This document shows, piece by piece, positions 38,276 through 48,978 of a stretch of DNA of 64,000 nt. The notes under the pieces are model-generated. The model saw nothing but the letters and a program-made list of their open reading frames with translations, searched no databases and had not been told where the DNA came from. Every line of letters starts with the position of its first letter. Positions within the stretch are counted from its first letter, which is position 1. A program made the position numbers and the translations under genes. The DNA comes from an uncultured delta proteobacterium (GTDB taxonomy: Bacteria; Desulfobacterota; Binatia; DP-6), in assembly GCA_963815115.1 (NCBI GenBank), contig CAWFFN010000012.1, positions 543,260 to 607,259 on the forward strand. The letters run 5' to 3'.

Positions 38276-38382
38276 GTGTAGTCCTCCCTTCGGCGACGAG
38301 GCTACGTCAGCGCGTGCTCTCTGCCTAGCCGGGTCTGCGGGACGCTCGAACCGCGGCGCGACGCCCCCCGTTGACGGGATGC

Positions 38383-39357
38383 ATGGAACATGCGAACGGC
38401 GACGGCGTGCACGGCGCGAGCATCTTCGCCCCCGCCGGCGCTCCGGCTGACGCGATCCGGACGCTATCGCTCCTCGTGTTGGCGATCACCGGCGTCATCT
38501 TCGTGATCGTCGGGGGGTTGCTCGTCTACTGCCTCGTTCGCTACCGACGCCGCCCGGGCGACGACGGACGCGAGCCGCCGCAGGTCTACGGCAGCAATCC
38601 GGTGGAGCTGGCGTGGACCGTCGTCCCGATCCTCATCGTCTTCGTCCTGATCACCACGGCGACGCGCACCACCTTCGAGATCCAGGCCGCCCCGCCGCCC
38701 GCGGATGCCATCCAGGTGCGCGTCGTCGGCCACCAGTGGTGGTGGGAGTTCCAGTATCCTGCGCTCGGGGTGATGACGGCGAACGAGCTGCACATCCCGG
38801 TGAGCGACCCGGCGCGGCCGACCCCGACGTACCTCACCCTCGAGTCGGCCGACGTCGCCCACAGCTTCTGGATCCCCCAGCTTTCCGGCAAGACCGACCT
38901 CATCCCGAATCGCCGTAACGTCATGTGGATGGCGCCCGCGAAGCCCGGTACCTACCTCGGGCAGTGCGCCGAGTTCTGCGGCACCCAGCACGCCAAGATG
39001 CTGCTGCGCGTGGTGGTGCATCCGGCCGACGAGTTCGCTCGCTGGGTACAGGCGCAGAGCCGGCCCGCGGCGAAGCTGCCCCAGGCCGAGGCGGGACGGC
39101 GGCTCTTCGAGACCACGGCCTGCGTCAGCTGCCACACGGTGCGCGGCACCAGTGCCGACGGCCGCTTCGGACCCGACCTGACGCATCTCATGAGCCGCGA
39201 CACGCTCGGTGCGGGCGCGGCGCAGAACGACTCGACCACCCTGCGCGCGTGGGTGGAGGATCCGAGCCGGTTCAAGCCGGGGGTGCTCATGCCGGCGATG
39301 CAGCTCACGCAGCCCGAGCTCGACCAGGTGGTCTCCTACCTGGCCTCGTTGCGCTGA
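38383..39357 (+). CDS. coxB: cytochrome c oxidase subunit II with a fused C-terminal cytochrome c domain (caa3-type)
   Basis: Two N-terminal TM helices, the CuA site (HSFWIP...CAEFCGTQHAKM) and a C-terminal CVSCH haem c motif. ATG at 38383; the ORF track uses TTG at 38371. Confidence 0.85.
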   Translation: MEHANGDGVHGASIFAPAGAPADAIRTLSLLVLAITGVIFVIVGGLLVYCLVRYRRRPGDDGREPPQVYGSNPVELAWTVVPILIVFVLITTATRTTFEIQAAPPPADAIQVRVVGHQWWWEFQYPALGVMTANELHIPVSDPARPTPTYLTLESADVAHSFWIPQLSGKTDLIPNRRNVMWMAPAKPGTYLGQCAEFCGTQHAKMLLRVVVHPADEFARWVQAQSRPAAKLPQAEAGRRLFETTACVSCHTVRGTSADGRFGPDLTHLMSRDTLGAGAAQNDSTTLRAWVEDPSRFKPGVLMPAMQLTQPELDQVVSYLASLR

Positions 39358-39359
39358 CG

Positions 39360-41039
39360 ATGGGCGTCCTCGATCGAGCCGTTCCCGCTGCCGAGCCGGT
39401 CGTCGAGGGGCCGTCGCTCGCCACCCGTCTGCACGGCTGGGTGGTCACGGTCGACCACAAGCGGCTCGGGATCATGTACATCCTCAGCGGCGTCCTCTTC
39501 CTGCTCGTCGCCGGCACGATGGCGACGGTCATCCGGCTGCAGCTCGTGATCCCCAACGCCCAGCTCGTGCCTCCCCAGGTGTTCAACCGCCTGATGACCA
39601 TGCACGGCACGACGATGATCTTCTTCGTCGCCGTCCCGATCCTGTTCGGCTTCGGGAACTACCTGTTCCCGCTCATGCTCGGCGCGCGCGACGTGGCCTT
39701 CCCGCGGCTCAACGCCTTCGGCTTCTGGCTCTTCCTGTTCGGCGGGCTCCTGCTCTACTTCAGCTACGTCGCCGGCGACGGCCTCTATGGCGCGGGCTCG
39801 GCGCCCGACGTCGGCTGGTTCGCCTACGCGCCCCTCACCGAGCGGCCCTTCTCCCGCGGCAGCAGCACCGACTACTGGATCCTGGGCATCGCGCTCGCCG
39901 GGATCGGGACGACCGCGACCGCCGTCAACCTCCTCGCGACGACGGCGTCGATGCGCTGCCGGGGCATGACGCTCGGGCGCATGCCGCTCTTCGTCTGGCT
40001 GGTGCTCGTGGCCGCGGCGATGCTGCTCATCGCCCTGCCTCCGCTCACGGCGGCGCAGGTCATGCTGCTCCTCGACCGCTTCCTGGGCGCGCACTTCTTC
40101 GACACCCAGGCCGGAGGCTCGGCGGTACTCTGGCAGCACTTCTTCTGGCTCTTCGGGCATCCCGAGGTCTACATCCTCGTCCTGCCAGCGTTCGGCATCG
40201 CGTCGGAGATCATTCCGGTGTTCTCACGAAAACCGATCTTCGGTTACCCGATCATGGTTGCCGCGTCGGTTGCGATCGGCACCATCAGCATCTCGGTGTG
40301 GGCCCACCACATGTTCGCCGTCGGCATGGGTCCCGCGGCCAACAGCTTCTTCATCACCTCGACGCTGCTGGTGGCCGTGCCGACGGGCATCAAGCTCTTC
40401 AACTGGCTCGCCACCATGTGGGGCGGGAAGATCCGCTTCGCCACCCCGATGCTCTTCTGCGTCGCCTTCCTCTTCCAGTTCCTCTGTGCCGGTCTCACCG
40501 GCGTCATGCTCGGCGTGGCGCCGTTCGACTGGCAGCTGACGGACTCGTACTTCGTGGTCGCGCACTTCCACTACGTCGTCGTCGGGGCGATCCTCTTCAA
40601 CATCTTCGCCGCCGTCTACTACTGGTTCCCCAAGATCACCGGGCGCCTGATGAGCGAGCGCCTCGGCCGCTGGCATTTCTGGCTGATGGTGGTGGGCTTC
40701 AACCTCACGTTCGGTCCGCTGCACATCGCGGGCATCCTCGGCATGCCCCGGCGCATCTATACCTATGACGCCGGACGGGGCTGGGAGATCTGGAACCAGC
40801 TGGCGTCGCTCGGGGCCCTCATCCAGGCGGCCGCGGTGCTCGTGTTCGCCTGGAACGCGATCGTCTCGCTGCGGCGAGGAGCGATCGCCGGCAACGATCC
40901 GTGGGACGCCTGGACGCTCGAATGGAGCACGACGTCGCCGCCACCGGAGTACAACTTCGCTTCCCTCCCGGAGGTGCGTAGCCGCCGTCCGCTCTGGGAT
41001 CTGAAGCACCCCGACGATCCGGACTGGCCATATGAGTGA
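39360..41039 (+). CDS. coxA: cytochrome c oxidase subunit I
   Basis: 559 aa. WFFGHPEVY-type motifs (LWQHFFWLFGHPEVYILVLPAFG, VWAHHMF, FHYV). Starts 3 nt after the coxB stop. Confidence 0.9.
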   Translation: MGVLDRAVPAAEPVVEGPSLATRLHGWVVTVDHKRLGIMYILSGVLFLLVAGTMATVIRLQLVIPNAQLVPPQVFNRLMTMHGTTMIFFVAVPILFGFGNYLFPLMLGARDVAFPRLNAFGFWLFLFGGLLLYFSYVAGDGLYGAGSAPDVGWFAYAPLTERPFSRGSSTDYWILGIALAGIGTTATAVNLLATTASMRCRGMTLGRMPLFVWLVLVAAAMLLIALPPLTAAQVMLLLDRFLGAHFFDTQAGGSAVLWQHFFWLFGHPEVYILVLPAFGIASEIIPVFSRKPIFGYPIMVAASVAIGTISISVWAHHMFAVGMGPAANSFFITSTLLVAVPTGIKLFNWLATMWGGKIRFATPMLFCVAFLFQFLCAGLTGVMLGVAPFDWQLTDSYFVVAHFHYVVVGAILFNIFAAVYYWFPKITGRLMSERLGRWHFWLMVVGFNLTFGPLHIAGILGMPRRIYTYDAGRGWEIWNQLASLGALIQAAAVLVFAWNAIVSLRRGAIAGNDPWDAWTLEWSTTSPPPEYNFASLPEVRSRRPLWDLKHPDDPDWPYE

Positions 41040-41607
41040 GGAATCGGACGGCTGGACGCTGCCGTCCCGCGGGCGTGCCGGGATGGTCGGGCTCATCATC
41101 ACGGAGGCGGCGTTCTTCGCGATCTTCGTCGTCGCGTACCTGTTCTACGTCGGGAAGAGCGTGAGCGGTCCCACGCCCGCCGCCGTGCTCCACACGCCCG
41201 TCCTGGCGTCGATCCTGCTGCTCTCGAGCAGCTGGACCATCGTGCTCGCCATGCGCGCCCTGCGCGCCGGCGCCACCGGCCGCTTCGCACGCTGGTGGTC
41301 TGCCACCCTCCTGCTCGGCGTGGGCTTTCTCGCGCTGACGGCGCGCGAATGGGCGCGCCTCATCGGCCACGACGGCCTCACCATCGCGACCAACCTCTTC
41401 GGCACCACCTTCTACACCCTGGTGGGCCTTCACGCGCTGCACGTCACCCTGGGCCTGACGCTCATCGCGCTCGTGCTGGCGCTCACGCTGCGCGGGCACG
41501 TCGACGCGCGGCACGCGGAGCGGACCGAGATGCTGTCCTGGTACTGGCACTTCGTCGACGGGGTGTGGGTGATCGTGTTCCTCACGGTCTACGTGGTGGG
41601 GCGGTAG
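41032..41607 (+). CDS. coxC: cytochrome c oxidase subunit III (short form)
   Basis: 191 aa, 5 TM helices, C-terminal HFVDGVWVIVFLTVY motif. Overlaps coxA by 8 nt. Confidence 0.8.
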   Translation: MSEESDGWTLPSRGRAGMVGLIITEAAFFAIFVVAYLFYVGKSVSGPTPAAVLHTPVLASILLLSSSWTIVLAMRALRAGATGRFARWWSATLLLGVGFLALTAREWARLIGHDGLTIATNLFGTTFYTLVGLHALHVTLGLTLIALVLALTLRGHVDARHAERTEMLSWYWHFVDGVWVIVFLTVYVVGR

Positions 41608-41613
41608 GCGGCC

Positions 41614-42426
41614 ATGGCACCGGCCAGCCGCATCGAGGTCCCGGCGCCCACCGCGTGGCCGATGATCGCCGCATTCGGCATCACGCTCGTCTGCGCGGGT
41701 CTGGTGACCGATGCGCTCGTGTCCGTCGTCGGGGTCGTCGCCATGCTGGCCGGCGCGGTCGGCTGGTTCCGCGCCGTCCTGCCGGTGGAGGACTGCGAGT
41801 CGGTGGCGGTCGAGCCCGAGGTCCCGGTCGCGATCGCGCGCAGCGAGGTGACCCATCTCGAGATCGGCGAGGCGGGGCACCGCGCGCGCCTCCCGATCGA
41901 GATCTACCCCTACTCGGCGGGCGTGAAGGGCGGGATCGTCGGCGGCATCGCCATGGCGTTCCTCGCCATGCTCTACGGTGTGCTCTTCCATGGCAGCGTC
42001 TGGTACCCGATCAACCTGCTGGCGGCGGGCACGATGGCCTCGCTCGCGAGCGCCGACACGGCGGAGCTCATGCGATTCAATGCCGGCGCGCTCGTGGTCG
42101 CGGCGGTGATCCACGGCCTGGGGTCGCTGCTGGTCGGGCTGCTCTACGGCGTGCTGCTGCCGATGTTGCCGAGACGTCCGATTCTCTTCGGCGGAATCGT
42201 CGTGCCGGCGCTCTGGACGGGGCTGATCTGGGCGTCCCTCCGCATCGTGAACCCGACCCTCAACGCGCGCATCGACTGGCCGTGGTTCGTGGCCTCGCAG
42301 ATCGCCTTCGGCATCGCCGCCGGGATGGTGGTCGCGCGCTCGGAGAAGATGGCCACCCTCCAGTCTGCCCCGTTCGCGGTGCGCGCGGGGATGGAGTTCC
42401 CGCGCGAGCGGGGCGGGGCATCGTGA
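41614..42426 (+). CDS. unknown polytopic membrane protein embedded in the cox/bc cluster
   Basis: 270 aa, about 6 TM helices, no recognisable motif. GTGA overlap with the next gene. Confidence 0.5.
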   Translation: MAPASRIEVPAPTAWPMIAAFGITLVCAGLVTDALVSVVGVVAMLAGAVGWFRAVLPVEDCESVAVEPEVPVAIARSEVTHLEIGEAGHRARLPIEIYPYSAGVKGGIVGGIAMAFLAMLYGVLFHGSVWYPINLLAAGTMASLASADTAELMRFNAGALVVAAVIHGLGSLLVGLLYGVLLPMLPRRPILFGGIVVPALWTGLIWASLRIVNPTLNARIDWPWFVASQIAFGIAAGMVVARSEKMATLQSAPFAVRAGMEFPRERGGAS

Positions 42427-43097
42427 GACCTGCCGCCGCCGTGCTGCTCGCGGCCGCACTCCTGGCGGCGTGCGACCGGTTGCCCGGCCGGCCGCGCGAG
42501 GCGGACCGGCCTCTGCGCCCGCACGACGTGACCAGCTTCGCGGAGCTCTACGGAGCGAACTGCGCCGGCTGCCACGGATCGAACGGCACGCTCGGCGCGG
42601 CCGCTGCCCTCGCCAACCCCACGTACCTCGCCTGGGTGGACGACGCGACGGTGCGGCGCGTGATCACCGAGGGCATCCCGGGCACGTCCCAGCCCGCCTT
42701 CGCCATCAGCGCGGGGGGATCGCTCACCGACGCCCAGGTCGACGTCCTGGTGCGCGGCATGCGGACGCAGTGGCCGGCGCCGCCGCCGGCCGGCACGTTG
42801 CCGCCGTACGCGGCCGACGGCGGAGGTGACGTCGCGCGCGGCGGAGCGCTGTACGCGCAGCGCTGTGCACTCTGCCACGACCCGGGTGGCAAGGGGTCGC
42901 CGAAGGGTGGCTCCGTGGTCGATCCGGACTACCTCGCGCTGGTGAGCGACCAGGCGCTCCGCACCGCCGTGGTGGCGGGCCGACCCGACCTCGGCATGCC
43001 GGACTGGCGTGGCGCGCCCCCGTGGCCGGCGCTCGCGCCGCAGCAGGTCTCGGACCTGGTCGCATGGATGGCGTCGCATCGGAAGGGAGGAGCATGA
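42423..43097 (+). CDS. dihaem cytochrome c lipoprotein
   Basis: GTG start. Lipobox LLAAC, then two CxxCH motifs (CAGCHG, CALCHD). Confidence 0.75.
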   Translation: MRPAAAVLLAAALLAACDRLPGRPREADRPLRPHDVTSFAELYGANCAGCHGSNGTLGAAAALANPTYLAWVDDATVRRVITEGIPGTSQPAFAISAGGSLTDAQVDVLVRGMRTQWPAPPPAGTLPPYAADGGGDVARGGALYAQRCALCHDPGGKGSPKGGSVVDPDYLALVSDQALRTAVVAGRPDLGMPDWRGAPPWPALAPQQVSDLVAWMASHRKGGA

Positions 43098-43594
43098 GCG
43101 AGGAGGGAGTCAGCCGGCGCGGCGTCCTGCTCACCCTGGGGATCGCCCTCAACGCCGTCGCGGCGGCGCTGCTCGCCGTGCCGCTGCTGGGGTTCATCCT
43201 GTCACCGGCACGACGCTGGTCATGGCAGCGGTGGGTGCCGCTCGGGCCCGTGTCCGACTTTCCGGAGAACCAGACACGGCTCGCCACCTATCGAAACCCG
43301 TTCTCGCGTCCCTGGGACGGCGAGACGGCGAACATCCCGTGCTGGGTGCGGCACGTGTCGGGTGACGAGTTCCTGGTCTTCGCCATCAACTGTACCCATC
43401 TCGGCTGCCCGGTGCGCTGGTTCGAGGGCGCCGGTCTGTTCATGTGCCCGTGTCACGGCGGGGTCTACTACTCCGACGGCGAACGGGCGTCGGGGCCGCC
43501 GCCGCGCGCGCTCTACCGCTACGAGCACAAGCTCGAGAGCGGACAGCTCTGGGTGCTCGGCGGGCAGCTGCCCACGCTGTCGGAGCACGTCTGA
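43094..43594 (+). CDS. Rieske [2Fe-2S] iron-sulfur protein
   Basis: Tat motif SRRGVLL. CTHLGC...CPCHG Rieske boxes. ATGA overlap with the preceding stop. Confidence 0.85.
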   Translation: MSEEGVSRRGVLLTLGIALNAVAAALLAVPLLGFILSPARRWSWQRWVPLGPVSDFPENQTRLATYRNPFSRPWDGETANIPCWVRHVSGDEFLVFAINCTHLGCPVRWFEGAGLFMCPCHGGVYYSDGERASGPPPRALYRYEHKLESGQLWVLGGQLPTLSEHV

Positions 43595-43595
43595 C

Positions 43596-45053
43596 ATGGA
43601 GCCGCTGCGCGCGTTCGCCGACTGGATCGACCAGCGCCTGGGCCTCGGCGAGCCGCTCGCCGAGGTCGCCGGGCACCGTGTCCCGCGCGACACGGCGAGC
43701 TGGTGGTACGTCTTCGGCAGCGGGACGCTCGTCCTCTTCATCATCCAGGTCGTGACCGGCATCTGTCTCGCCACGGTCTACGTTCCCTCGGCCGCCGGCG
43801 CCTGGCAGAGCCTCGAGGTGCTCAACTACGAGCAGCCGCTCGGCTGGTATCTCCGCGCCGTGCACGGCTGGGGCTCGAACTTCATGGTCGCGATGATGAG
43901 CGTCCACGTCGCCCAGGTCTTTCTCTTCGGCGCCTACAAGTATCCGCGCGAGCTCACCTGGATCGCCGGGGTGTTCCTGCTGCTGTGCACGCTCGGCATG
44001 GCGTTCACGGGGCAGGTCCTGCGCTTCGATCAGGACGCCTACTGGGGCCTCGGCATCGGGGCGGCGATCGCGGGGCGGATGCCGCTGCTCGGGCGCGAGG
44101 TCGTCCACCTGCTGCTCGGCGGCCCGATCATCGCGGGCGAGACCCTGTCGCGCTTCTTCACCATGCACGTCTTCGTGGTGCCCGGGCTCCTGATCGCCTT
44201 CGTCCTGGTGCACCTCCTGCTCGTGCTCCGTCTCGGCGTCAACGAGTGGCCCATGCCGGGCCGGGTGGTGAGCCGCGCGACCTACCGCCGCGACTACGAG
44301 GAGCTGGTCAAGCGCGACGGGGTGGCGTTCTTCCCGCACGCAGCGAAGCGCGACATCGTCTTCGCGGGAATCCTGATCTGCGCTGTGCTCGCATGCGCCG
44401 CGATCTTCGGGCCCTTCGGGCCGAACGGCCAGCCCGATCCCACCATCATCCAGACCACGCCGCGCCCGGACTTCTACTTCCTCTCGCTGTTCTCGGTCTT
44501 CGCGCTCCTGCCGCCGTGGACCGAGACCGTCCTCATCCTCACCGCGCCGGTGCTCGGGATCATCGCGCTCTTCGCGCTGCCGTTCATCTCCGGCACCGGC
44601 GAGAAGAGCTGGCTCCGCCGCCCCGTGTCGGTCCTGGGCATCGTGCTCGTCTTCCTGACCCTGGCGACGCTCACCTGGCTCGGGCTCTCCTCGCCGTGGT
44701 CGCCGCACATGGAGGCGTGGAGCGAGGCGCCGACGCCGGTCGAGTACGTGCGCGGCCGCTCGCCGCTCGAGCTGCAGGGTGCGCTCCTGGTGCAGAGCAA
44801 GCAGTGCCGGAACTGCCACGCGCTCGGCGGCGAAGGCGGCCTGCGCGGGCCCGCGCTGGACGACGTCGCCACGCGGCTCACGCGCGACCAGCTGGTGCGT
44901 CAGATCATCCAGGGCGGTGGCAACATGCCGGCGTACGGCAAGAACCTGAGTCCGGCCGAGGTCACGGCGATCGTCGCCTTCCTGCGCACCATGCACCCGC
45001 CGGAGCAGGCGCCGGCGCAAGACGCCTCGCAGCTGCTGCGCTCCGCCCGCTGA
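43596..45053 (+). CDS. cytochrome b with a fused C-terminal monohaem cytochrome c domain
   Basis: 485 aa, about 8 TM helices with the His ligands of the b-type fold ([20 protein letters not shown]), and a C-terminal CRNCH. Confidence 0.85.
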
Positions 45054-45061
45054 CGTTGGTC

Positions 45062-47239
45062 GTGGGTTCCGTGGCGCAGGCGGTTCTCGCGTCGTGGTCG
45101 CTCGCTCCCGGGCTCGCCGCCGTCCTGCTCGTGCTCGCCACGCTCTATGTCCGCGGCTGGGGCGTGTTGCGCCGCCAGATGCCCGAGCGCTTCCCGGCCT
45201 GGCGGCTCGGCTGCTTCCTCGTCGGGCTCGCGACCCTCTACGTGGCCGTGGCCTCGCCGATCGACGCCTTCGCCGGCCTGCTGCTCCAGGTGCACATGCT
45301 CCAGCACCTGCTGCTCATGATGGTCGCGCCCCCGCTGGTCCTCCTCGGGGCGCCGGGAGTGCCGCTGCTGCGCGGGCTGCCGCCCCGCCTGGCGAAGGAC
45401 GCGCTCGGGCCGTTTCTCGCCTGGCCAGCGCTGCGCCGCGTGGCGGCGGCGCTCACCCATCCCGTGGTGTGCTGGTGCGGGCTCGTCGCGGCCACCTGGC
45501 TGTGGCACCTGCCCGCCCTCTACCAGCTCGCGCTCCGCAGCCCCGCCTGGCACGCCGTCGAGCACGCGACCTTCCTGTCGACGGGCCTGCTCTTCTGGTG
45601 GCCGGTGGTGCAGCCGTGGCCGAGCCGCGCTCGCTGGCCGCGCTGGACCATCCCCCTCTACCTCCTCCTCGCCGACGTGCAGAACACGATCTTCTCCGCC
45701 CTGCTCGCGTTCTCCGAGCGCCTCTTCTACCCCGTGTACGCGGGCGTCCCCCGGCTCGGCGGTCTCTCCGCGCTCGACGATCAGGTGGCGGCTGGCGCGC
45801 TCATGTGGGTGCCGGGGTCGATCGTCTTCCTGGTGCCGACCGCGCTGATCACGGCGCGCCTGCTGTCGCCGCAGCCGCCCCCGCTGCCCGCGGCGGCTCG
45901 CCGGAGCGTTCACGTGCAGCGATCGCCCCGCGACGTGCTCCGCATCCCCGTGATCGGACCTGCGCTGCGCCAGCCGCTCGCGCGGCGCGCGGCGCAGGCG
46001 GTGATGCTGCTCCTCGCCGCCGCGGTGGTCGCCGACGGACTGCTCGGACCCGCGATGAGCCCGATGAACCTCGCCGGCGTGCTGCCGTGGACGGGCTGGC
46101 GTGCGCTCACCGTGCTGGCGCTCCTCGTCGCCGGCAACGTCTTCTGCTTCGCCTGTCCCTTCATGCTGCCGCGGGAGCTGGCCCGCCGCATCGCCGCGCC
46201 CGCTCGCCGGCTTCCCCGCCTGCTGCGGACCAAGTGGCTGGCGATCGGACTGCTGATCGCCGGCTTCTGGGTGACGGAGACCTGCGCGCTGTGGGATGGA
46301 CCGCGCGCCACCGCCTGGCTGATCGTCGGGTACTTCGCCGCTGCGACGATCGTCGATTCCACCTGGCGGGGCGCGAGCTTCTGCAAGTACGTCTGCCCGA
46401 TCGGACAGTTCCACTTCGTCAGCTCCCTCGTCTCGCCGCTCCAGGTCCGCGCCCGGGCGCCGGCGGCGTGCGCGTCCTGTACGACCCACGACTGCCTGCG
46501 CGGCAATCCTGCTCGGCGGGGCTGCGAGCTCGACCTCTTCATGCCGCGCAAGGTCGGCAACCTCGACTGCACGTTCTGCCTCGACTGCGTGCATGCCTGC
46601 CCGCACGACAACGTCGGCCTCTTCGTCGCCGCTCCGGGAAGCGATCTCGTGCACGATGCCCGGCGCTCGTCGATCGGGCGGCTCTCGCAACGGCTGGACG
46701 TGGTGGCACTCGCCGTCCTGCTCGTGGTGGCCGCCTTCGTCATGGCGGGCGTGATGGTCGTGCCGGTCTCCGCGCCGTGGCTGCTCGCCTTGCTGGCGGC
46801 TGCGCCGATCGCGGTGGGGGCGCTCGTCCTGGTCGCGCCGCCTCGCCGCGCGCGGGTGAGCCGCTTCGCACTCGCGCTCGTGCCGCTCGGGGTGTCGATG
46901 TGGGCGGCGCACTTCCTCTTCCACCTGCTCACCGGCTGGCACGCCTTCGCCCCCGTCCTGCGGCGCCCGCTGGCCGACCTGGGACTTCTCGATCCGCCGA
47001 GCTGGACGGCCGCGGCGGGCGCGGTCGCGCCCGGCGGCGTGCTCGGGCTCGAGCTGTTGCTGCTCGACCTCGGGCTTCTCCTGACGCTGTGGGTGGTCTG
47101 GCGCGTGGCCCGCGATCGCGGCCCGGGCCCGCTCGCACCGCTCATCCCCTGGGCGAGCGCCGCGACGGCGCTGTGGGCGGCCGGCGTGTGGATCGTCTGC
47201 CAGCCGATGGCGATGCGGGGGATGATGTCGCATCCGTGA
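45062..47239 (+). CDS. single ORF fusing a CtaG/CopD-like caa3 assembly-type membrane domain to a NapH/CcoG-like polyferredoxin membrane domain
   Basis: N-terminal half: [19 protein letters not shown] ... HAVEHATF (CtaG_Cox15/CopD-like). C-terminal half: [30 protein letters not shown] (CxxCxxCxxxCP ferredoxin motifs). No stop between the halves. The start is uncertain (TTG 45056, GTG 45062 or GTG 45071). Confidence 0.55.
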
Positions 47240-47275
47240 GCCCGCGCGCGCTTGCCGGACCGCATCCGACGTGCC

Positions 47276-48247
47276 ATGAGCCGACTCGTCGTGGCGCAGG
47301 CGCGCATCGTCGAGACGACGGTCGACGGCTTCATGGCGCGCAAGCTCGTGTCGCCGAGCGGCACGCTGGACGCGACGTTCGTGGTGGGCGCCGGCATGGT
47401 CGGCAGCTCGCTGCGACACGAGGGGGCGGAGCTGCTCGACCCGCGAGGCGGCGTGACACGTTACGCCGCGCAGGGGGCGACCATGGGCCTTCCGCTGCTG
47501 CACCCCTGGGCGAACCGGCTGGACGGCCTTCGCTACGCCGTCGCCGGGCGGCAGGTCGTCCTCGGCCCCGACTCGGGCGTTCTGCACCTCGACGGCAACG
47601 GCCTGCCCATTCACGGCCTGCTGCCGGGACGCTCGCGCTGGGAGCTGGTCCACGCGGAGGCGACGCCCGCCGCCGCGCGGCTCGAGGCACGTCTGGTGTT
47701 CTCGCCCGACCCCGCGCTGCTTGCGGCCTTCCCGTTTCCGCATCGGCTGCAGCTCGGGCTCTTGCTGCGCGACGACGCGCTCGTGGTCGAGACCACGCTG
47801 GCGGCGGCCGGCGACGTCGCCGTGCCGGTGGCGTTCGGGTTCCATCCCTACCTGCGGTTGCCCGGCGTCCCGCGCGAGCAGTGGACGGTCGAGCTGCCGG
47901 TGCACGAGCAGCTCGTGCTCGACGCGCGCCAGCTTCCCACCGGCGCGCGCGAGGCGGTGCGCATCGATCCGGCACCGCTCGGCGAACGCACCTTCGACGA
48001 CGCCTTCGTCGCGCCGCGCGACGCGGCGCCCTTCGTCGTCGCCGGGGGCGGACGGCGCATCGCGGTGGAGTTCGTGCGCGGCTACACGGTCGCGCAGGTG
48101 TTCACCCCGCCGCGCGCGTCCTTCATCTGCTTCGAGCCCATGACGGCGCCCGCGAACGCGCTCGTGCGCGGCGGACCCGATCTGCGGCTCGTCGAGCCCG
48201 GAGAGCGCTTCACGGCCGCGTTCGCGATCCGTGTCGGGCGCGCCTGA
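47276..48247 (+). CDS. aldose 1-epimerase (galactose mutarotase-like) family protein
   Basis: Motifs of the mutarotase-like fold ([33 protein letters not shown]). ATG at 47276; a TTG at 47252 is possible. Confidence 0.7.
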
Positions 48248-48306
48248 CGAGGGCGTGCCACCGCGACCGGGGTCATGCTAGGAGAAGAGCCTCGGAGGTC
48301 GTCGTC

Positions 48307-48978
48307 ATGGCGGTGTTCGCGCGCAAGCTGAGGGTTCCGTCTGCCGCCGAGGCGCTGCCCGGCCGCACCGAGCGCATGCGCGTGCCGGCCCGGCACTTCG
48401 TTCTGGGCACCCCGCTCGAGCCGCCGTTCCCCGAAGGGCTCGAGCGAGCGGTGTTCGGCATGGGCTGCTTCTGGGGCGCCGAGAAGACGTTCTGGCAGGC
48501 AGACGGTGTGTACACCACCGCGGTGGGATACGCCGCCGGCCACACCCCGAACCCGACCTACGAAGAGGTGTGCTCCGGCCTCACCGGGCACTCCGAGGTC
48601 GTACTCGTGGTCTTCGATCCACGACGCACGAGCTACGGCGAGATGCTTCGCATCTTCTGGGAGCACCACGATCCGACCCAGGGCATGCGACAGGGCAACG
48701 ACGTCGGGACCCAGTACCGCTCCGGCATCTACTGGCACTCCGAAGCGCAGCGCGCAGCGGCCGAGTCGTCGCGCGCCGCGTATCAGCACGCCCTCGCAGC
48801 GAGCCGGTTCGGCACCATCACCACGGAGATCCTGCCTGCCTCCGAGTTCTACTACGCCGAGGACTACCATCAGCAGTACCTGGCGAAGAACCCCGCCGGC
48901 TACTGCGGGCTCGGCGGGACGGGTGTCAGCTGCCCGGTCGGACTCGTGTCTGCGCCCGGCTCGGGCTCGGCGTCCTGA
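48307..48978 (+). CDS. msrA: peptide methionine sulfoxide reductase A
   Basis: The GCFWG active site has Cys, not Sec. GYAGG, QYRSGIY and AEDYHQQYL are present. GGAGG as RBS. Confidence 0.9.

Follow-up and report, generated by a model that had tools for sequence, protein, structure and literature searches.

The CcoG/FixG protein of Rhodobacter capsulatus is a [4Fe-4S] cupric reductase required for the CuB centre of cbb3-type oxidases (PMC7558416, PMC13038864), its reduction of Cu(II) to Cu(I) in cbb3 oxidase biogenesis having been shown experimentally (PMC7558416), and YccM is a short homologue of it in Escherichia coli (PMC7558416). For the Bacillus oxidases, where there is no CcoG, a recent study argues that a localised cupric reductase in the membrane may be required (PMC13344008), and proteins of the Caa3_CtaG family, which carry conserved ligands at the outer face of the membrane, are tentatively taken as CuB factors (PMC9145763, PMC8239418). 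The gene described here bears on the route by which copper arrives at CuB and CuA in A-type oxidases other than those served by the proteobacterial/mitochondrial Cox11-Sco system. It lies in a 64,000-nucleotide stretch of DNA (the window) from an uncultured member of the Binatia (GenBank assembly GCA_963815115.1, contig CAWFFN010000012.1, positions 543,260 to 607,259) and encodes, as the last gene of a bc-caa3 oxidase operon, a 725-residue protein in which a CtaG domain, a membrane polyferredoxin and a third membrane module follow one another. We propose, with a probability of roughly 0.55, that this fusion is an assembly factor devoted to copper processing for the caa3 oxidase, in which a CcoG-like Fe-S reductase would provide CtaG with Cu(I).

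The interval 45062-47239 on the forward strand translates to 725 codons followed by its sole stop (47237-47239). An open frame alone is weak evidence here because the stretch, at 73.7% GC (guanine plus cytosine), leaves one further forward and one reverse frame stop-free as well. A protein search with the 725-residue product returned 4716 relatives, and in the best 120 protein clusters of these the alignments span 97-100% of its length with identities of 51-83%, in proteins 709-865 residues long. From a genome scan of one genome per species we retained 80 related loci for frame and context counts; both halves share one stop-free frame in all 80, and this frame is uninterrupted even in genomes of 47-54% GC, whose other frames hold 9-49 stops. 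GC at codon positions 1, 2 and 3 of the frame is 0.745, 0.534 and 0.93, and an identical product with the same start is present, unnamed, in the NCBI/ENA gene calls. Three in-frame starts are candidates (TTG 45056, GTG 45062 and GTG 45071), of which the one at 45062 agrees with the N-termini of the homologues and with the public gene call. We conclude that 45062-47239 is a genuine single gene for one three-module membrane protein. The claim of an earlier reading of this DNA (the original prediction) that no stop codon separates the two halves is thus confirmed, and the motifs that it quoted are all found in the translation: HMLQH at residues 78-82 (nucleotides 45293-45307), HAVEH at residues 164-168 (45551-45565) and CxxCxxCxxxCP at residues 503-514. 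The first homology search peaked at 83% identity because the 90% cluster that holds the exact product is represented by a 316-residue fragment (P0121). Long overlapping open reading frames (ORFs) also occur in other frames (44900-47905 on the reverse strand, 1001 residues; 45094-48978 on the forward strand, 1294 residues), and 43703-47239 on the forward strand (1178 residues) is an upstream extension of the real gene's own frame; such long overlapping ORFs are by-products of the ~74% GC, and length alone is no evidence for a gene here.

The N-terminal module matches the Pfam family Caa3_CtaG (PF09678) over residues 28-267 with E 6.7e-60 and 202.8 bits against a cut-off of 27.7, the match spanning profile positions 2-234 of 237. 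The NCBIfam model for the Bacillus CtaG equivalog, TIGR02737, is not reached (59 bits against a cut-off of 279.35), and family searches did not detect CopD in the 725-residue protein. Judged by these profile scores, module 1 is a Caa3_CtaG family member and not the Bacillus equivalog, and of the CtaG/CopD likeness that had been suggested for this half only the CtaG part survives. In an alignment of 39 full-length homologues, from which all residue conservation is taken, H78, M79, Q81 and H82, W148 and H149, W163, H164, E167 and H168, and M248 and W249 are invariant; seven helices were assigned to the module from the AlphaFold2 (AF2) model and hydropathy, and the conserved residues, including H78, H82, H149, H164 and H168, lie near the predicted periplasmic helix ends. 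D240, at the periplasmic start of transmembrane (TM) helix 7, is near-invariant (38 of 39) and is a candidate counterpart of the family's invariant Asp, D249 in B. subtilis numbering (PMC8239418). The B. subtilis CtaG resembles module 1 in its seven TM helices, its conserved outer-face His residues, probably an Asp, and its terminal position in the cta locus; the fusion differs from it by 455 additional residues. Precedents for fused copper modules are CtiP of Corynebacterium glutamicum (CopD-like plus Caa3_CtaG, 16 TM helices), which is needed for the bc1-aa3 supercomplex (PMC9145763, PMC13344008), and YcnJ of B. subtilis (CopC-CopD-YtkA), but the partner modules in these proteins are copper-binding or transport modules and not redox Fe-S modules, and the CtaG domain is C-terminal in CtiP whereas here it is N-terminal. 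The linker behind module 1 is predicted to be cytoplasmic, has low model confidence and accommodates insertions of up to ~100 residues in homologues.

Module 2 contains 12 invariant Cys residues, eight of them in two Fe-S motifs. CFACP aligns with the first CxxxCP motif of YccM and NapH and is one residue shorter; the spacing of CKYVCP is identical to that of its YccM/NapH counterpart. In the standard wiring of a 2x[4Fe-4S] ferredoxin eight Cys residues ligate two clusters, and by this pattern the last eight Cys of module 2 would bind two [4Fe-4S] clusters; the low AF2 confidence at residues 474-505 is expected because the model was built without cofactors. A C-half profile built from 24 sequences was aligned by hhalign with E. 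coli YccM at 96.7% probability (E 3.8e-10, 180 columns) and with E. coli NapH at 94.4% probability (E 9.4e-8, 217 columns), and each alignment brings both pairs of motifs, Cys-Pro and Fe-S, into register. The NCBIfam NapH/MauN model TIGR02163 matches with E 2.8e-7 and 30.3 bits against a cut-off of 213.05, PRK09477 reaches 23.4 bits against 234, and the best Pfam match in the C-half of the window protein is Fer4_9 at E 0.23. Among the 24 relatives, 16 match Fer4_5 below threshold (best E 1.9e-4), whereas the window protein does not, and 6 match Fer4_18, likewise below threshold. Searches of PDB sequences with the C-half sequence itself and with its profile gave trivial ferredoxin motif matches alone (E>5), and tblastn with the C-half in a plasmid collection gave solely unnamed '4Fe-4S binding' and cyclic-nucleotide (cNMP)-domain proteins. 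On these alignments module 2 belongs to the NapH/NosR/CcoG polyferredoxin superfamily, outside its curated families; the earlier description as a NapH/CcoG-like polyferredoxin is upheld at the superfamily level (TIGR02163, YccM), but the module is a member of neither family because it scores far below every curated cut-off.

Compared with CcoG/FixG and YccM, the fusion likewise contains a polyferredoxin set in the membrane, has Cys motifs predicted at the cytoplasmic face and carries in its sequence the CcoG-type pair of ferredoxin-type [4Fe-4S] Cys motifs, and it too is encoded beside a haem-copper oxidase operon and with FixH/YtkA-like Ig-fold proteins. Unlike CcoG, its first motif is CxxCP, one of its Fe-S motifs is non-canonical, and it is fused to CtaG and tied to an A-type (caa3) and not a cbb3 oxidase. 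With NapH/MauN and the C-half of NosR it shares four TM helices and two Cys-Pro and two Fe-S motifs in the same order, and NosR also serves a copper enzyme. Unlike NapH/MauN, it stands in an operon that has oxidase and bc genes only, without NapG or nap, mau or nos genes; unlike NosR/NirI, it lacks a periplasmic flavin domain (no FMN_bind match) and has Caa3_CtaG as its N-terminus; and it differs from both NapH and NosR in the extra tail and CtaG.

Whereas the original prediction had described a fusion of two parts, both of which stand, it missed a third module of five TM helices in the last 190 residues. This tail (residues 536-725) has no relative in Pfam or NCBIfam, and a Foldseek search with the full AF2 model (mean pLDDT, the predicted local distance difference test score, 81.5 and predicted template modelling score, pTM, 0.66 for the whole protein) against the PDB gave nothing at E<=0.001. 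Derivation of the tail from a diverged CopD/CtaG half or from a NapH-like TM repeat was considered and rejected, with hhalign probabilities below 1%. Its invariant residues are M565, R601, H617, H621, W680 and, at the end, Q714, P715, M716, M718, R719 and G720. The C-terminal TM helix and periplasmic Ig-like FixG_C domain that define CcoG are absent, and the 5-TM tail, with its HxxxH motif and Met-rich end, stands in place of FixG_C; the E. coli YccM is without the Ig-like domain too (PMC7558416). Topology was assigned by the positive-inside rule across the 39-sequence alignment, which places the loops at 96-133, 358-391 and 685-693, the linker and the Fe-S domain in the predicted cytoplasm and both the CtaG His/Met/Asp cluster and the QPMxMRGMM C-terminus in the predicted periplasm. 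Because of this loop assignment, both Cys-Pro motifs are predicted to be cytoplasmic.

Table. Features of the fusion gene, its operon and the stand-alone cassettes (coordinates are window positions unless a locus is named).
Feature	Detail	Coordinates	Strand	Basis
Whole gene	CtaG + polyferredoxin + tail, ~16 TM helices	45062..47239	+	GTG start; translation, homologues, AF2
Module 1	Residues 1-270, Caa3_CtaG, 7 TM helices	45062..45871	+	Pfam PF09678, alignment, AF2 helices
Linker	Residues 271-300, Arg-rich	45872..45961	+	Alignment, AF2
Module 2a	Residues 301-435, four TM helices, NapH/YccM-type polyferredoxin	45962..46366	+	hhalign, NCBIfam TIGR02163
CFACP	C362-x2-C365-P366, predicted cytoplasmic end of TM9, invariant	46145..46159	+	
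Module 2b	Residues 436-535, predicted cytoplasmic ferredoxin-like domain	46367..46666	+	Invariant Cys, positive-inside analysis, weak Fer4 matches
CKYVCP	C441-x3-C445-P446, second membrane-face Cys motif, invariant	46382..46399	+	
Non-canonical cluster motif	C470-x2-C473-x4-C478-x9-C488	46469..46525	+	
Canonical [4Fe-4S] motif	C503-x2-C506-x2-C509-x3-C513-P514	46568..46603	+	
Module 3	Residues 536-725, family-specific 5-TM tail	46667..47236	+	Alignment, AF2
HFLFH	H617-x3-H621, invariant, intramembrane, long helix 607-639	46910..46924	+	
QPMAMRGMM	C-terminal, Met-rich, predicted periplasmic	47201..47227	+	
Oxidase subunit II (cox2)	With C-terminal cytochrome c domain (caa3 type), first operon gene	38371..39357	+	Pfam COX2, COX2_TM, Cytochrom_C
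Oxidase subunit I (cox1)		39360..41039	+	Pfam COX1, E 5e-161
Short subunit III (cox3)	191 residues, without the first two profile helices	41032..41607	+	Pfam COX3, positions 78-257 of 258
mp270	270-residue membrane protein	41614..42426	+	Conservation, model
Dihaem cytochrome c	Lipoprotein-type signal (LLAAC)	42423..43097	+	Two CxxCH, at 42561 and 42864
Rieske iron-sulfur protein		43094..43594	+	Pfam Rieske; start inferred
Cytochrome b	With C-terminal cytochrome c domain	43596..45053	+	Pfam Cytochrome_B, Cytochrom_B_N_2, Cytochrome_CBB3; ATG start
Stand-alone cassettes		L083:7035-9811, L085:7001-10021, L087:7030-9844, L088, L090		

The position at the end of a bc-caa3 cluster had been predicted correctly, the fusion gene being the last of eight forward-strand genes (38371-47239) that overlap or are spaced by 2-8 nt. 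We counted contexts by searching the 80 loci with the window proteins by tblastn. In 59 of them the fusion directly follows the series cox2-cox1-cox3-mp270-dihaem c-Rieske-cyt b, with the cytochrome b-c gene immediately upstream; in three it directly follows mp270 with no bc genes between; and three loci have too little DNA for context. When the halves were checked in relatives, as had been advised, the oxidase-linked forms proved always fused (80/80 genomes), and separate polyferredoxin genes occur only as a sister subfamily within a different cassette. Altogether the fusion is present in at least 590 species genomes, among them Verrucomicrobiota, Acidobacteriota, Planctomycetota, Binatia and others, the closest locus among the matches listed being a metagenome-assembled genome of the 'Thermodesulfobacteriota'/Binatia type at 77% identity. 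It is ancient and widespread and not a local oddity. Public databases carry thousands of copies; JGI gives some of them the label 'CtaG/polyferredoxin', and NCBI gives them the label 'cytochrome c oxidase assembly protein'.

Searched exhaustively by HMMER with the C-half, a set of 1.84 billion cluster representatives yielded 1836 proteins at E<=0.001, 285 of them at E<=1e-30. Alongside fused proteins and fragments, these include complete stand-alone proteins of 420-520 residues that consist of the polyferredoxin plus the tail, including AHYxFH and QPMxMRG. In a neighbour-joining tree, which is rough and without bootstraps, the fused forms make up one clade nested among the stand-alone forms, and fused and stand-alone forms are jointly set off from YccM and NapH by a long branch. 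From the tree and the stand-alone proteins it follows that polyferredoxin and tail are one evolutionary unit, which appears to have been fused to CtaG a single time.

The surroundings of the stand-alone forms point to copper handling. Six contig look-ups gave nine places on contigs. Several of these share synteny and probably derive from related organisms; among the named sources are Bacteriovorax-like, Pyrinomonadaceae and Acidiferrales. At eight of the nine places the stand-alone polyferredoxin with its tail directly follows a YtkA-domain gene in a four-gene cassette, whose products are a ~190-residue His-rich membrane protein (HWAEHL, WHHIEH and a C-terminal CxC), the YtkA-domain protein itself (PF13115, with a weak FixH match too and an MxHxGM motif), the polyferredoxin, and a secreted, C-terminally anchored protein with the predicted mature end HEGPP, possibly an N-terminal His copper site. 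The cassette is incomplete at the ninth place (L091), where a 59-residue gene without a Pfam match takes the YtkA position. This four-gene cassette looks like an undescribed copper-handling system. A comparable neighbour accompanies the fused forms: in 62 of the 71 fused loci with enough downstream DNA the next gene encodes a conserved ~184-residue anchored protein and usually overlaps the fusion stop codon (e.g. L046:12274-12705; loci L002-L080). This protein has a signal peptide, an ADGG mature end, a weakly YtkA/FixH-like domain (sub-threshold, YtkA E 2.6e-4 to 8e-3 and FixH E 2.4e-3 to 0.06) and a C-terminal anchor, and resembles the cassette proteins by BLAST. FixH/CcoH is encoded beside ccoG, and the arrangement with a YtkA/FixH-like partner echoes, by analogy, this ccoG-ccoH pairing. 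In B. subtilis, YtkA/CtaK is a CuA assembly factor (PMC13344008).

On the proposed mechanism, the CxxCP and CxxxCP motifs at the cytoplasmic face would bind copper beside the two-[4Fe-4S] domain, whose clusters would reduce Cu(II) to Cu(I) as in the related CcoG. Cu(I) would then cross the protein's own membrane part, possibly by way of the HxxxH motif of the tail and the periplasmic Met-rich C-terminus, and would reach the periplasm-facing His/Met/Asp cluster of CtaG, from which it could pass to CuB and/or CuA. ORF continuity, the homology of modules 1 and 2, the invariance of the candidate ligands, the predicted topology, the operon linkage and the copper-chaperone context of the stand-alone relatives are established, and it is from these that we infer the chemistry. 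The original prediction had left open whether the protein is an assembly factor or a supercomplex subunit; the former is the better supported, and for the latter there is no support past gene linkage. That the fusion is kept across several phyla is 'Rosetta-stone' evidence for CtaG working in a single step with copper reduction or, at the least, with redox chemistry, and the link of Caa3_CtaG to Fe-S-dependent copper chemistry can be tested in cultured Acidobacteria, Verrucomicrobia and Planctomycetes. The lineages that carry the fusion are abundant aerobes of soil and fresh water, and this is therefore likely a major oxidase biogenesis route in nature. Additional outcomes are an unrecognised 5-TM His/Met module, the four-gene YtkA cassette and a widespread 270-residue operon protein, for which present annotations read hypothetical or just 'CtaG'.

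Several observations weigh against the copper-processing assembly factor. The literature gives Caa3_CtaG itself no more than a tentative function (PMC9145763), and the part assigned to the tail in copper passage derives wholly from its conserved His and Met residues and predicted topology. The C-half is without CcoG's periplasmic Ig-like domain, the spacing of its first Cys motif, CxxCP, is unlike the polyferredoxin family, it falls well short of all curated family thresholds (for NapH, 30 bits against 213), and no CcoG-type NCBIfam model matches the window protein at E<=1. Its sequence is no closer to CcoG than to NapH or NosR, and for this reason the homology would suit a quinol dehydrogenase or an electron donor just as well. 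When the plasmid collection was searched by tblastn with E. coli YccM, NosR and NapH came out nearest, two unannotated matches being taken as NosR without a family scan, one of them in the C-terminal part of an 812-residue ORF, as would be expected of NosR, and the other in an 872-residue ORF. Genomic context adds two points: 15 of the 80 loci have no oxidase gene within reach of the fused gene, and the window holds no ~184-residue partner (hidden Markov model of 62 sequences, all six frames of the 64 kb, best E 0.032), its place being taken by an aldose 1-epimerase gene 13 nt past the fusion stop.

The main rival, which we regard as unlikely but deserving of serious weight, is that the Fe-S module is a NapH/NosR-like electron-transfer unit and CtaG handles copper alone. 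Electrons would pass from the quinol pool or a cytoplasmic donor to an assembly process or an enzyme, for example to keep the CuA site or the thiols or other ligands of CtaG reduced or to reactivate the oxidase. NapH and YccM being equally close to the module, its sequence fits an electron-transfer unit and a copper reductase alike; the sole curated models touched are NapH/MauN, the hhalign alignment with NapH covers more columns than that with YccM (217 against 180), YccM-type proteins are nearest to NosR/NapH by BLAST, and the CxxC spacing of the first motif fits a thiol-redox role too. Within its own family NosR supports the copper enzyme N2O reductase by electron donation, which is established and offers a parallel. 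The operon, however, has no NapG-like or other periplasmic Fe-S partner and no nap or nos gene, the neighbours of the stand-alone forms are copper-chaperone-like proteins and not redox enzymes, and the conserved Met/His tail and periplasmic Met-rich end point to metal handling.

Polyferredoxin plus tail may represent an unrecognised family of 'reduce-and-translocate' copper machines, fused or stand-alone, an idea we hold as speculative and rather doubtful. Cu(II) could be reduced at the cytoplasmic face by the two [4Fe-4S] clusters, and Cu(I) could cross via the 5-TM tail without a P1B-type ATPase, to be handed to CtaG in the fused form. Were this true, one polypeptide would replace CcoG, CcoI and a chaperone relay, and it would give a first mechanistic handle on Caa3_CtaG.

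The fusion might instead be a permanent subunit or redox sensor that bridges the bc-caa3 supercomplex. It is the last of eight packed structural genes, co-transcribed with them in an apparent 1:1 order that is kept in 59 of 80 genomes, and its large TM mass could form an interface. We consider this improbable: 15 of the 80 relatives encode the fusion away from the oxidase, in the two inspected among housekeeping or unrelated genes, three more have it in oxidase clusters without intervening bc genes, the polyferredoxin with its tail also stands alone in cassettes that have no oxidase genes, and the ctaG gene of B. subtilis is likewise terminal in its cta locus and acts as an assembly factor (PMC9145763).

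Comparably low odds attach to polyferredoxin plus tail as a self-contained copper importer or exporter, fused to CtaG for co-expression only. The stand-alone cassettes, with YtkA, the His-rich membrane protein and the possible N-terminal-His protein, are not beside oxidase genes, and CcoG also affects copper tolerance (PMC7558416); yet the fused forms are a single clade in the rough neighbour-joining tree with strict oxidase linkage in most genomes, and a fusion without exception in 80 genomes of several phyla argues for functional coupling. Least probable by far, and refuted by the retained frame, is the reading of the single ORF as an artefact of a missing stop, of a frameshift or of GC-rich DNA that is open in this frame by chance. 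The two other stop-free frames at 73.7% GC speak for it; against it stand the one frame kept in 80 of 80 relatives down to 47% GC, the stops that other frames carry in low-GC genomes, the third-position GC of 0.93, the identical public gene call and the full-length homology.

Literature searches found no description of a CtaG-ferredoxin fusion. Two surveys of Caa3_CtaG make no mention of it (PMC8239418, PMC9145763), and its architecture falls outside one of them because that survey is limited to proteins of 6-9 TM helices (PMC8239418). The fusion is widespread in databases and apparently has never been studied.

Within the operon, cox1 and cox3 overlap by 8 nt, mp270 and the dihaem cytochrome c gene, which lies in another frame, by 4 nt, and the latter and the Rieske gene by 4 nt; a promoter and terminator scan of the operon gave no more matches than in shuffled sequence. 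Upstream, on the opposite strand, lie BON-LysM and short-chain dehydrogenase/reductase genes, and downstream the aldose 1-epimerase and a glutathione S-transferase gene, all of them unrelated to the operon. The same gene order recurs in Verrucomicrobiota, Acidobacteriota, Planctomycetota and Binatia. Unlinked fused genes, with the fusion still intact, are found in some Verrucomicrobiota (Terrimicrobiaceae, Chthoniobacterales); the unlinked loci include L007, L014, L019, L021, L029, L030, L032, L041, L043, L047, L060 and L075, and in the two that were inspected the neighbours are RibD, NusA and IF-2 in one and sulfatases in the other.

The 270-residue membrane protein that had been noted between coxC and the dihaem cytochrome c (mp270) is real and conserved, and in nearly all linked loci its gene directly follows cox3. 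It matches no known family. Homologues at E<=1e-5 number 7839; each is either unnamed or called 'hypothetical protein', almost none has a Pfam domain, and their alignment contains no invariant His or Cys. In its model, built with database homologues (pLDDT 81.5), an N-terminal hairpin of two TM helices precedes a 4-TM bundle. The hairpin (residues 3-52, PAPTxWP...GWFR) gives a weak profile match (E 0.034) to mitochondrial subunit III that covers residues 10-64 of 7o37_c, the first two helices of that subunit. Because these are the helices that the operon's short, 191-residue cox3 lacks, mp270 may, tentatively, supply the missing subunit III hairpin, and it may be either a part of subunit III that has split off or a component resembling subunit IV.

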